From: Candidatus Harpocratesius repetitus
GTDB taxonomy: Archaea > Asgardarchaeota > Lokiarchaeia > Sigyniarchaeales > Promethearchaeaceae
Direction: 5' to 3'
Assembly: GCA_021498095.1 (NCBI GenBank)
Contig: JAIZWK010000001.1
Coordinates: 2,220,001 to 2,252,000, forward strand
DNA length: 32,000 nucleotides
Each line of letters starts with the position of its first letter. Position 1 is the first letter of the stretch. The notes below the pieces were generated by a model, which was not told the origin of the DNA, searched no databases, and saw only the letters and a list, made by a program, of their open reading frames with translations. A program made the translations under genes and the position numbers. Shown piece by piece: positions 28,623 through 30,790 of the stretch.

Positions 28623-29261
28623 TTAATCTTTTTCTCTTTTTGTTATAGGTTGACGGAGAATTGTTTTTAATTTTTCGGGTTCAATTTTTCGGGGATCACT
28701 TAAGTAAATTTCATGATGCTTACCTGATAATAAATATCCATTATCCTTAGCAAACTGATGCATTTTCTTTATTATTGGTGGTTCATCATTATATGGCCCA
28801 ACATACAGCAATTGAACACATTCACCTTCATCATAACTTTCCCAATATAATTTGGGTTGCATTTTAGGATTTTTAGATTCTTTTAATATTGTTACAGCTA
28901 GATTTATTTGATTCTCTTTTACAAAATCAGGTATTCTTATCATCATTATCCACTGCCATTGTTCTTTATTTTCCATAGACCATTTATTCATATCATCCAT
29001 AAACCATAGTCCTTCTAATGGAGGAACAACATAATCATTCTCTGGTTGCTGCTTTTTGATAACTTTCATTTTCAAAGTATATGAAATACTATATAGCAAT
29101 TGTACAGCTTCTTGATATTCTTTAGAATTGTTTGGATTACCCTTTCCATTAACCATAAAAAATTTCATTTTGGGGATTGTAATAAAAACTGGGGTTTCTC
29201 TTGGGGGATTATACAACTCTGGGAATTCTTTTTTAAAATCTATTTTTTTCTTTGATGACAT
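28623..29261 (-). CDS. GyrI-like small-molecule-binding domain protein
   Basis: DFKKEFPELY, GKGNPN, VPPLEGLW, YVGPYNDE, HHEIYLSDPR..KLKTILRQP. Confidence 0.85.
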   Translation of the reverse strand: MSSKKKIDFKKEFPELYNPPRETPVFITIPKMKFFMVNGKGNPNNSKEYQEAVQLLYSISYTLKMKVIKKQQPENDYVVPPLEGLWFMDDMNKWSMENKEQWQWIMMIRIPDFVKENQINLAVTILKESKNPKMQPKLYWESYDEGECVQLLYVGPYNDEPPIIKKMHQFAKDNGYLLSGKHHEIYLSDPRKIEPEKLKTILRQPITKREKD

Positions 29262-29409
29262 TGACTTTTTTCCTTCTAATTATGATAATGAAAAAAAAGG
29301 AGTGATTATGTTCTTAAATTCTAAAAATCAAGTGCTTAAGTATCTGATTTATTAAACTTATTTACACTTATTTACACATATCCACTCTATTTTTCGATCT
29401 TCTATTTCT

Positions 29410-29541
29410 TTAACTGCGAGGTTTAAAACTGTGAGTTGGGCAGTTCTCAACATTCATTGTAGCAGGAACTTCATGTCCAAAACAGTCCCCTTTCGATTCA
29501 TCAATTGGTTTATAATATTCACAATCTTTACATTGACTCAT
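29410..29541 (-). CDS. 43-aa four-Cys protein, HiPIP-like / benzylsuccinate synthase gamma (BssC)-like (not in the ORF track)
   Basis: MSQCKDCEYYKPIDESKGDCFGHEVPATMNVENCPTHSFKPRS; AGGTGA ribosome-binding motif 5 nt upstream of the ATG. Confidence 0.78.
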   Translation of the reverse strand: MSQCKDCEYYKPIDESKGDCFGHEVPATMNVENCPTHSFKPRS

Positions 29542-29685
29542 TATTTTCACCTATACAGCGTAATAATCAACCTTAATGTCTTATTATTCAAAATGCGAAT
29601 TTTTAAGAGATCAGGTTATTACTACTACCTTTATTTTCCTAAACACTTTATTTTGTGTATAAATGTTTAGGTGATTTGAAATTAT

Positions 29686-29743
29686 ATTTGTGACAATAAA
29701 AATATTTTTTAAAAAGAAAATTAATATTAAATTAGTCACAAAT
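29686..29743. promoter_or_regulatory. 9-bp perfect inverted repeat with 40-bp spacer in the divergent promoter region
   Basis: ATTTGTGAC at 29686-29694 and GTCACAAAT at 29735-29743. Confidence 0.4.
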
Positions 29744-29785: not shown

Positions 29786-30790
29786 TTGCGCACCTTTTTC
29801 AGTGAATTGGGATTGAATGAAAATCAAATTGAAATCTTTTTCCTATTATTAACAAAAAATAGTCTTACTATTTCTGAGATTCAAGAAGAAACAAGTCAAT
29901 CATATTCCCAAACGGTTGTAAATCTCAAATACCTTCAAAAATTAGGGCTTTTAACTGTAGAAAACTGTAAACCAAAAAAAGTTCATTTATTTGATCCAAA
30001 AATATCAATACAACAACTAATTGAAAAAAAAAACGAATATTTCCAGCAGAATTTAGAAAAAATCGAAAGAGAAATAAAAATACAGACAAGCCATTTCGGT
30101 GTATGTGCAAAGGAAATTTCCCATTATTATTATTCTGATATAGGATTAGGTATTGAAAGGTGGTTTCGATTAATCTATAATGCAGAAAAATCTATTGTCC
30201 TTTCATCTCTTCCTTTGAAAATATATAAGCGAATTGAACCTGCATTAAAGCATGCGTTTCAAAAAGGAATTCAAATTCAAATTTACTATTCTCGATTGGA
30301 TTTTAATTTTGAGAATCAAGAGATGGAAGTTTTAGAAAAAATAATGGATATTCTTCAGAATTTGCGTTTTAATTTGATAGAATTAGAAGAAAAAACGTGT
30401 CAGAATGTTGGATTTAATAATCAAATAATTCAGAATGGATTTCTTCTAATTGATAACATTTTTTTTAATTCACTGGGATTTTTAGATGAAAAGGTGTTCT
30501 ACATTCATGGCTTTTATTCAAAGAATACCGTTGAACAAATTACTCGCCTTTTTCAGTTGAAAACCCCAAAAAAACATATAGAATTGAAATATCCAAAGGT
30601 GTATAGCAAAATAATCCAGATAATTCAAACAAACCAAAATCCTATTAAAACTCGAGATCTCAGTAGAATTATCGGAATTGGGGGAACTAAGCTTAAACAA
30701 ATGTTAGATTTTTTAGTGAGAGAAGGTGAAATTCAGAAAAAAATTGTCAGTTCTACTCGAGGTCGTCCTGCTGTTTATTATTTTTATTAA
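29786..30790 (+). CDS. TrmB-family transcriptional regulator with an additional C-terminal winged HTH
   Basis: ELGLNENQ..LTISEIQEETSQSYSQTVVNLKYLQKLGL (TrmB wHTH); central effector domain (NAEKSIVL); C-terminal KTRDLSRIIGIGGTKL..RGRPAVYY. Confidence 0.8.
   Translation: MRTFFSELGLNENQIEIFFLLLTKNSLTISEIQEETSQSYSQTVVNLKYLQKLGLLTVENCKPKKVHLFDPKISIQQLIEKKNEYFQQNLEKIEREIKIQTSHFGVCAKEISHYYYSDIGLGIERWFRLIYNAEKSIVLSSLPLKIYKRIEPALKHAFQKGIQIQIYYSRLDFNFENQEMEVLEKIMDILQNLRFNLIELEEKTCQNVGFNNQIIQNGFLLIDNIFFNSLGFLDEKVFYIHGFYSKNTVEQITRLFQLKTPKKHIELKYPKVYSKIIQIIQTNQNPIKTRDLSRIIGIGGTKLKQMLDFLVREGEIQKKIVSSTRGRPAVYYFY

Follow-up and report, generated by a model that had tools for sequence, protein, structure and literature searches.

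A conserved 43-residue archaeal protein with a predicted HiPIP fold, encoded beside DNA-binding regulators and genotoxin- or DNA-damage-related genes

In the genome of Candidatus Harpocratesius repetitus, we analyzed a stretch of 32,000 nucleotides (nt) of contig JAIZWK010000001.1, referred to below as the window. A 43-amino acid (aa) open reading frame (ORF), here called S, lies in it between a GyrI-like gene on the same strand and a divergently transcribed gene of the TrmB family, and an operator-like sequence separates the two divergent genes (Table 1). An earlier note on this DNA had named both neighbors of S. The divergent TrmB-family gene and the GyrI-like gene were found as described, and the word "binder" used for the latter can be refined to a homolog of the Lin2189/YtkR7-type cyclopropanoid hydrolases.

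Table 1. Features at the S locus, with positions counted along the window.
Feature	Position	Strand	Basis and remarks
S, gene for a 43-aa four-Cys protein, predicted minimal HiPIP fold	29410..29541	-	Sequence, homologs, fold; end includes the stop codon
Ribosome-binding site AGGTGA of S	29547..29552	-	5 nt before the ATG; motif kept in homologs
Lin2189/YtkR7-type GyrI-like protein (cyclopropanoid cyclopropyl hydrolase subfamily)	28623..29261	-	Pfam GyrI-like; downstream of S, same strand
TrmB-family regulator, 334 aa: N-terminal wHTH, TrmB-like middle, second wHTH near the C-terminus	29786..30790	+	Pfam, linkage
Operator-like split palindrome: TTTGTGAC (29687-29694), 40-nt AT-rich spacer, GTCACAAA (29735-29742)	29687..29742		Between the divergent genes

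Translation of S gives 43 codons and a stop, with M-S-Q-C-K-D-C at the N-terminus. The four Cys are spaced C4-x2-C7-x12-C20-x13-C34, and the other motif residues are Y9Y10, K17-G18-D19-C20, F21-G22 and F39. The pattern proposed in the earlier note was correct in its Cys, YY, GDC and FG spacing and incorrect in its last element, C-x3-F, since four residues separate C34 from F39. A GTGA-type ribosome-binding site is located 5–8 nt 5′ of the ATG in nearly all homologous loci (n = 18). An alternative frame with a GTG start would encode 46 aa, but it is unlikely to be used because the homologs start with M-x-x-C. A 79-aa frame antisense to S was without sign of coding.

A profile built from four close homologs detected S in 20 of 61 related genomes, representing four families, with E values of 1e-22 to 1e-30, so that the short ORF with its AGGTGA site, as first proposed, has homologs well beyond this genome. 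Across the phylum, profile searching found S in 37 of 301 genomes; an exhaustive search of representative sequences gave 84 clusters at 50% identity, and a scan of species genomes with a four-member S alignment gave 100 confirmed loci, 80 of which were kept, all of them named. Free-standing members of the family are 42–45 aa long. The four Cys, on whose conservation the earlier claim depended, are invariant in 57 diverse members and form the only invariant columns, G18 being nearly invariant. Among 19 orthologs, the pairwise difference was 0.17 at the first codon position, 0.10 at the second and 0.45 at the third. Across the relatives from the four families, S shows 62–84% identity, compared with 25–55% for the TrmB-like neighbor and 37–67% for the GyrI-like neighbor. 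The spread of homologs, the third-position bias and the invariance of the Cys are together far above chance, thereby indicating that S is a real, strongly conserved archaeal gene. The idea that its ORF is open only by chance, or encodes a leader peptide that does not fold, has the shortness of S and the many short ORFs of a 31% G+C genome in its favor, but it has practically no chance of being correct, being already contradicted by these conservation data, in which S keeps its identity while both neighbors diverge, and by the conserved ribosome-binding site, the stable domain fusions and the confident structural model described below.

The earlier note had likened S to BssC and to HiPIPs. Profile searches bore this out insofar as the matches were to HiPIP-type families, all below threshold. 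S of the window scored 15.8 bits (E 0.015, residues 1–20 only) with BssC_TutF (PF08201), for which the Pfam gathering cut-off is 25, and 15.3 bits with the model of the 4-hydroxyphenylacetate decarboxylase (HPAD) small subunit (NF033716), for which the NCBIfam cut-off is 50. When the 57 members were scanned singly, 18 touched BssC_TutF, 10 touched 4HPAD_g_N, nine HPIP_like, seven HIPIP (PF01355) and three BssB_TutG; every one of these HiPIP-type matches was sub-threshold, the best being to BssC_TutF (E 7.5e-4), and four unrelated Pfam families were each matched by single members. A profile of the S family searched against solved structures matched MasC (E 5.6e-4). Aligned along the HPAD-gamma domain, it placed three of the four Cys in register, with the first aligned column after C4.

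An AlphaFold model of S computed from the 57-row alignment had a pLDDT of 86.5. With this tiny model, Foldseek returned no match at E ≤ 0.001 and ranked HPAD gamma, HiPIPs and MASS gamma and beta first, at E > 0.05. In an exhaustive fold search against 48,161 chains, just 11 reached Z ≥ 2, and the top ten all had the HiPIP fold. The best match was one domain of HPAD gamma (2y8n_B; Z 5.4, rmsd 1.6 Å, 40 of 43 residues), and further matches were MASS gamma (Z 3.9), BSS beta (Z 3.7) and HiPIPs (Z 2.6–3.4 over 37–38 residues). The ESM Atlas returned unnamed clusters for S, together with DUF6472 at a score of 0.90; by hmmscan, no S member matched the DUF6472 Pfam family. From the small-protein model and the sub-threshold profiles, S is predicted to be a minimal, cytoplasmic HiPIP-fold protein.

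HiPIPs carry electrons in the periplasm of bacteria, phototrophs for the most part; they are exported through the Tat pathway, and their [4Fe-4S] cluster cycles between 3+ and 2+ at high potential. S is similar to them in its predicted fold and four-Cys spacing, but it differs in being cytoplasmic, mostly archaeal, only 43 aa long and below the Pfam cut-off, the matched HiPIP chains having 62–97 residues. Assignment of S to this exported class was rejected: S starts with M-S-Q-C, and with its first Cys ligand at residue 4 it has no room for an N-terminal signal sequence, in agreement with the lack of a signal peptide reported earlier.

The best sequence and fold matches of S are accessory subunits of glycyl-radical enzymes (GREs), namely BssC/TutF, MasC, BssB and the HPAD small subunit. 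S shares with them the CX2CXnCXnC motif beginning at residues 2–4, an N-terminal C-K-D/E-C-x-x-Y, a later G-D-C and the lack of a signal peptide. It is unlike them in scoring below every family cut-off and in its length (42–45 aa versus 51–86 in the fold-search matches). It also never lies beside a GRE, occurs independently of GREs, and has DNA-binding regulators and DNA-damage or genotoxin genes as partners. Membership in BssC/TutF was rejected because no X-succinate-synthase-type GRE adjoins S and the GREs of its own genome are of the PFL and PFL2/dehydratase types. Membership in the HPAD small subunit family, which needs two tandem domains (~80–86 aa), was rejected because S is a single domain of 43 aa. 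Some bacterial relatives (P0045, in loci L030–L032, and P0024) carry two S-like repeats in one 95–103-aa protein, as does the HPAD small subunit; in L030–L032 this tandem gene sits 3′ of a histidine-kinase-type (HATPase_c) gene.

As the earlier note had stated, the 32,000-nt window contains neither a GRE nor an activase, the nearest being ~27 kb from the ORF; the genome as a whole encodes two GREs, a PFL ~370 kb from S and an 843-aa PFL2/dehydratase-type enzyme, with its activase, at the ~27-kb distance. No GRE or activase homolog was found in 154 loci (944 kb) around family members and neighboring genes. A Gly_radical domain is present in 57 of the 61 relatives and S in 20, and one genome that is 99% complete (G046) has S and no Gly_radical match. 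On this linkage and co-occurrence the identification of S as a GRE subunit was dropped, the earlier view of S as a stand-alone protein held, and it is very probable that S has a role outside GREs. A variant in which S is encoded in trans as the small subunit of the orphan PFL2-type GRE ~27 kb away would draw on the resemblance of S to GRE gamma subunits and on the lack of a small-subunit gene beside the 843-aa enzyme and its activase. We regard it as highly improbable, given the 154 loci, the unequal distribution of S and Gly_radical and the G046 genome, and given that the 843-aa enzyme groups with dehydratase/PFL2 types, for which we know of no requirement for small subunits. The gene for this enzyme is in locus L002 (G000:C1:2275659-2280188), ~24 kb past the end of the window, and is followed directly by the activase gene; the first 150–180 residues of its product lie outside the family models, and all equivalog models score far below their cut-offs.

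The CX2CXnCXnC motif ligates a [4Fe-4S] cluster in BSS gamma and in MASS beta and gamma, which are HiPIP-fold proteins (PMC12358834). Considering the HiPIP-type profiles, the fold matches and this ligand motif of known proteins, we infer that S probably holds one [4Fe-4S] cluster through C4, C7, C20 and C34. The class of zinc ribbons and rubredoxins was rejected for S, because two CxxC (or CPxC) knuckles are needed and S has one. The second pair of S, C-x13-C, has the spacing of HiPIPs and BSS gamma and not that of a zinc ribbon or rubredoxin, and this argues against S being a purely structural mini-domain that binds Zn, or a single Fe, and that could still have a regulatory or adaptor role. 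Four-Cys mini-proteins are very often Zn-binding, the HiPIP-family profile scores of S are all below cut-off and, at 43 aa, S is shorter than the matched HiPIP-fold chains (at least 51 residues). We nevertheless consider a Zn protein improbable, since the conserved aromatic residues F/Y9, Y10, F21 and F39 flank the ligands of S, as aromatic residues likewise flank the cluster ligands of HiPIPs, and since the top ten fold matches among the 48,161 chains are HiPIP-fold chains and include no Zn-ribbon. A Zn-only S, equally improbable in this respect, would cut across the sensor and carrier roles considered below alike.

The GyrI-like protein encoded downstream of S matched Lin2189 (PDB 3b49_A) with an E value of 2e-52. 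The residue set of the cyclopropanoid cyclopropyl hydrolases (CCHs) comprises E157, E185 and the cage residues Y46, W85, W99, F154 and Y187 (PMC5684135); in Lin2189 numbering, the protein keeps E157, E185, Y46, W85, W99 and Y187, and has Y in place of F154. It is thus a homolog of these hydrolases in sequence, and a putative hydrolase. Lin2189/YtkR7-type GyrI-like hydrolases have yatakemycin and CC-1065 as substrates and protect cells (PMC5684135).

The S loci are similar to the yatakemycin self-protection system (YtkR7 hydrolase and YtkR2 AlkD-like glycosylase) in the Lin2189/YtkR7-type GyrI-like gene of the window and in a comparable pairing in locus L112, where a GyrI-like gene is followed by an AlkD-like one; AlkD-like genes also lie 3′ of S in non-Asgard loci. 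AlkD-like glycosylases act on the same lesion class as the YtkR7-type hydrolase substrates. The S loci differ from the yatakemycin system in having no biosynthetic cluster. To our knowledge, no Fe-S protein or TrmB/AbrB regulator has been described for the rest of the ytk system. The CCH study likewise describes neither an Fe-S protein nor a TrmB/AbrB regulator (PMC5684135), in contrast to the S loci.

The GyrI-like gene is located 3′ of S in about 18 of the 20 relatives' loci and in 39 of the 80 named loci. The spacer between them is 3–43 nt in most relatives versus 148 nt in this genome, and in P0089, represented by three MAG records, S and the GyrI-like protein are joined as one 256-aa protein. 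The spacer of the window (29262-29409) includes a 10-nt repeat in tandem, CTTATTTACA (plus strand, 29357-29376). At 29291-29298, 30 nt ahead of the start of the GyrI-like gene, it also has a run of eight A, which reads T8 on the coding strand. Because of the 148-nt gap with its T8 run, co-transcription of the two genes is uncertain here, and they may be transcribed separately in this genome. A predicted complex of S, the GyrI-like protein and a 4Fe-4S cluster scored 0.00, which is uninformative either way.

The two genes also occur apart. GyrI-like orthologs are found without S or TrmB in 12 relatives, and TrmB with S is found without a GyrI-like gene in three genomes (G010, G014 and G018) and in family f26; a caspase-like protein, a 145-aa membrane protein or others are then encoded 3′ of S. 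Since S and the hydrolase each occur without the other, the constant pair is the regulator and S, and the cargo varies. In another Asgard lineage (L063, L067, L120 and P0106), the gene after S encodes a conserved membrane protein of 145 aa without a clear family; in one record (P0106) the two are fused. In two genomes (G011 and G012; loci L071 and L072) and in L004, a radical-SAM plus helix-hairpin-helix gene of another family adjoins the GyrI-like or TrmB-like gene; we take it to be of the COG4277 type, which in the SOS regulons of bacteria is found paired with a UDG-like gene. A 64%-identical copy of this radical-SAM/helix-hairpin-helix gene is present at G000:C1:3784218-3785612.

The divergent regulator scored 39.6 bits with Pfam TrmB (PF01978; cut-off 25.6) and weakly matched Regulator_TrmB (E 0.05). 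Its scores with the NCBIfam TrmB models were far below cut-off, which places it in the TrmB family, though not among the sugar-TrmB equivalogs. In all 20 of the relatives' loci, in all 13 extended loci and in 45 of the 80 named loci, the divergent neighbor of S is a TrmB-like gene; the pairing was also observed in the distant family f26, where the identity of the regulator is 21–25%, and in L047. At the start of the C-terminal part of the regulator, a G-x-C motif (G105, C107) is invariant in 21 orthologs, including those with 21–24% identity, and Cys107 might serve as a thiol switch or as the site where S makes contact.

The intergenic regions between the divergent genes share the split palindrome ATTTGTGAC-N(~37)-GTCACAAAT, with half-sites in 12–14 of 18, and the 8+8 pattern of the window, TTTGTGAC-N40-GTCACAAA, occurs only once in the 4.36-Mb genome. 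Since these regions share the palindrome, which has no second copy in the genome, the regulator is probably a dedicated local one and would control both divergent promoters through this putative operator. The split palindrome also lies 5′ of the S-fusion gene of L048, a 1191-nt contig from marine sediment. The gene (P0006, 167-970) joins residues 1–36 of S to the C-terminal part of a TrmB-like protein without its N-terminal wHTH, and has a normal operator and ribosome-binding site in front of it, and at the edge of the contig a divergent gene begins; P0006 is possibly a real fusion of S and the regulator, or else an inverted assembly chimera. The distance from the operator to the start of S is ~145 nt here versus ~50 nt in relatives (29542-29686 of the window), and the extra leader DNA includes an 11-bp inverted repeat (29638-29648 and 29661-29671) that could form a hairpin.

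The named S loci are mainly archaeal. On the Asgard side they come from Promethearchaeota, Hermod-, Hod- and Thorarchaeota and Candidatus Lokiarchaeum ossiferum; the other archaeal carriers are Methanomicrobia, Methanosarcinales, Archaeoglobales, Thermococci, Thermoproteota/Bathyarchaeia, Thermoplasmata and a Methanobacterium isolate, and a few bacteria also carry S. Two of the carriers are in culture, Candidatus Lokiarchaeum ossiferum Loki-B35 (L122) and Methanobacterium sp. MZD130B (L155). Wherever the sources name S, it is annotated as "hypothetical protein". Two genomes of the same genus as the present one (G001 and G002; 87% and 92% complete) yielded neither S nor the GyrI-like gene with these queries, and the module of TrmB, S and GyrI-like genes looks like accessory, patchily distributed DNA. 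One contig labeled as a Candidatus Nanopelagicaceae bacterium (L113, DATKTW010000160.1) carries the Asgard-type trio together with Asgard flanking gene clusters, and is probably mis-binned.

Outside the Asgard archaea, a recurrent gene order is an AbrB/SpoVT-type gene, S, a gene for an AlkD-like HEAT protein and one for a radical-SAM enzyme of the PA0069/Rv2578c families (COG1533, SplB-like). The AbrB-type domain (PF04014) is fused to S in P0017, P0133, L115, L124 and L126, and in L134 (5 nt; PF04014 score 45.9 bits), L139, L140, L141, L144 and L149 an AbrB-type gene lies within a few tens of nt 5′ of S; these fused or adjacent arrangements occur in Thermoproteota, Archaeoglobi, Thermococci and others. 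Genes for PA0069/Rv2578c radical-SAM enzymes are present in 16 of the 80 named loci with S or AbrB-S directly upstream, and the enzymes from three independent S contexts are 32–33% identical. In P0132, S is fused to a PA0069-type enzyme through a helix-hairpin-helix part, beside an AlkD-like gene. The AlkD-like domain (PF08713) was above cut-off in L146, L139, L112, L137, L149 and L033, and the Asgard locus L112 has TrmB, S, GyrI-like and AlkD-like genes in that order. No PA0069-type homolog was found in the present genome. In bacteria, radical-SAM genes of COG1533 are members of SOS regulons (PMC8565304). None of S, AbrB-S, the GyrI-like protein and the radical-SAM fusion matched a PADLOC defense-system model. 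No obvious regulator accompanies S in its contexts in Methanosarcinaceae, ANME-2 and some bacteria.

The gene linkage tentatively suggests that S is an Fe-S sensor module acting with a DNA-binding regulator in a genotoxin or DNA-damage defense unit. In this genome, S as the first gene and the GyrI-like hydrolase gene would form a small unit, which the divergent, locus-specific TrmB-family regulator would control through the split palindrome. In this two-part switch, S would do the sensing through its metal cluster, and the neighboring DNA-binding protein, which is TrmB-like in Asgard archaea and of the AbrB/SpoVT type, fused or adjacent, in other archaea, would read out the redox state or the integrity of that cluster. 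The read-out would switch on genes that neutralize DNA-alkylating or redox-active genotoxins or repair the damage they cause, this cargo being the GyrI-like hydrolase here and the AlkD-like glycosylase and SplB-like radical-SAM enzyme elsewhere. Such a role accounts for the pairing with a regulator, the stable AbrB-S architecture, the variable cargo and the lack of a redox client in the present genome, where a PA0069-type enzyme is missing and the hydrolase can work without electrons. SpoVT itself consists of a DNA-binding domain and a sensor domain, a layout also found in AbrB-S. The earlier note had proposed a redox or sensing role, and the regulator-linked context of S fits sensing; we place the probability of a sensor or regulatory role a little short of even. 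The contexts without an obvious regulator count against it, the divergent regulator may control S as an ordinary product without feedback from S, and the fusions in P0089, P0132 and P0106 would fit an accessory subunit or electron carrier at least as well as a sensor.

An alternative, which we consider possible but rather unlikely, is that S docks on a neighboring enzyme, as its accessory Fe-S subunit or as a small carrier of electrons, and that the regulator simply controls the expression of S. In most archaea its partner, with the same modest likelihood, would be the SplB-like radical-SAM enzyme; in Asgard archaea S would serve the GyrI-like protein or a different client. The arrangement, no more probable in this form, would parallel the HiPIP-fold beta and gamma subunits on GREs. 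GRE accessory subunits are indeed the closest sequence and fold relatives of S, which is fused to GyrI-like (three MAG records), PA0069-type radical-SAM and membrane proteins; S or AbrB-S also lies directly 5′ of homologous radical-SAM genes in the 16 loci mentioned, radical-SAM enzymes need a reductant, and most relatives have only 3–43 nt between S and the GyrI-like gene. A carrier is harder to reconcile with the present genome, where the PA0069-type family has no homolog and the remaining neighbor performs Lin2189-type hydrolysis chemistry, which needs no electrons (PMC5684135), if it acts as predicted. The occurrence of the GyrI-like gene without S in 12 relatives, and of S without it in G010, G014, G018 and f26, also argues against an obligate pair of this kind, and a carrier role leaves the stable AbrB-S architecture unexplained.

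For the sensor role that we favor, SoxR, Wbl/WhiB and SpoVT offer a functional and architectural analogy only, without sequence or fold relation to S. SoxR and Wbl have a small Fe-S module through which transcription responds to redox-active compounds or to damage of the cluster. S is unlike these proteins in that its DNA-binding partner is of the TrmB or AbrB type and that its sensing is deduced from gene linkage. GyrI-like domains are described, in part of the literature, as the drug-binding parts of BmrR- and BrlR-type regulators.

The fold class and the ligand motif of S are already known, and the free-standing 42–45-aa form is new to the profile libraries, because no Pfam or NCBIfam model reaches its cut-off. 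A literature search found papers on GRE subunits and on GyrI-like proteins and none on a free-standing archaeal mini-HiPIP family, and the literature found was without the archaeal range of S, its dedicated regulator and operator, or its company of DNA-damage genes. If it binds a cluster, S would be, at 42–45 residues, smaller than any characterized natural [4Fe-4S] protein known to us and perhaps the smallest natural one with a single cluster, and it would be of interest for the study of minimal or ancestral Fe-S proteins and for protein design. If the predictions hold, it would represent a third use of the HiPIP fold, free-standing and cytoplasmic, after the periplasmic carriers and the GRE accessory subunits, and it is a possible clue to the GRE small subunits, whose Fe-S clusters lack a clearly assigned function.

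In its most specific form, the proposal is that S and its DNA-binding partner constitute an archaeal Fe-S switch that senses genotoxic or redox-active compounds, or damage, and activates DNA-alkylation defense genes; we regard this form as doubtful. Asgard archaea have, as far as we know, no LexA-type SOS system, and such a switch would do, in organisms that lack both, what SoxR or LexA control does elsewhere. That S is constantly paired with a DNA-binding protein, and recurs near DNA-alkylation and genotoxin genes, offers a testable starting point for finding out how archaea, including the Asgard relatives of eukaryotes, switch on such defenses.
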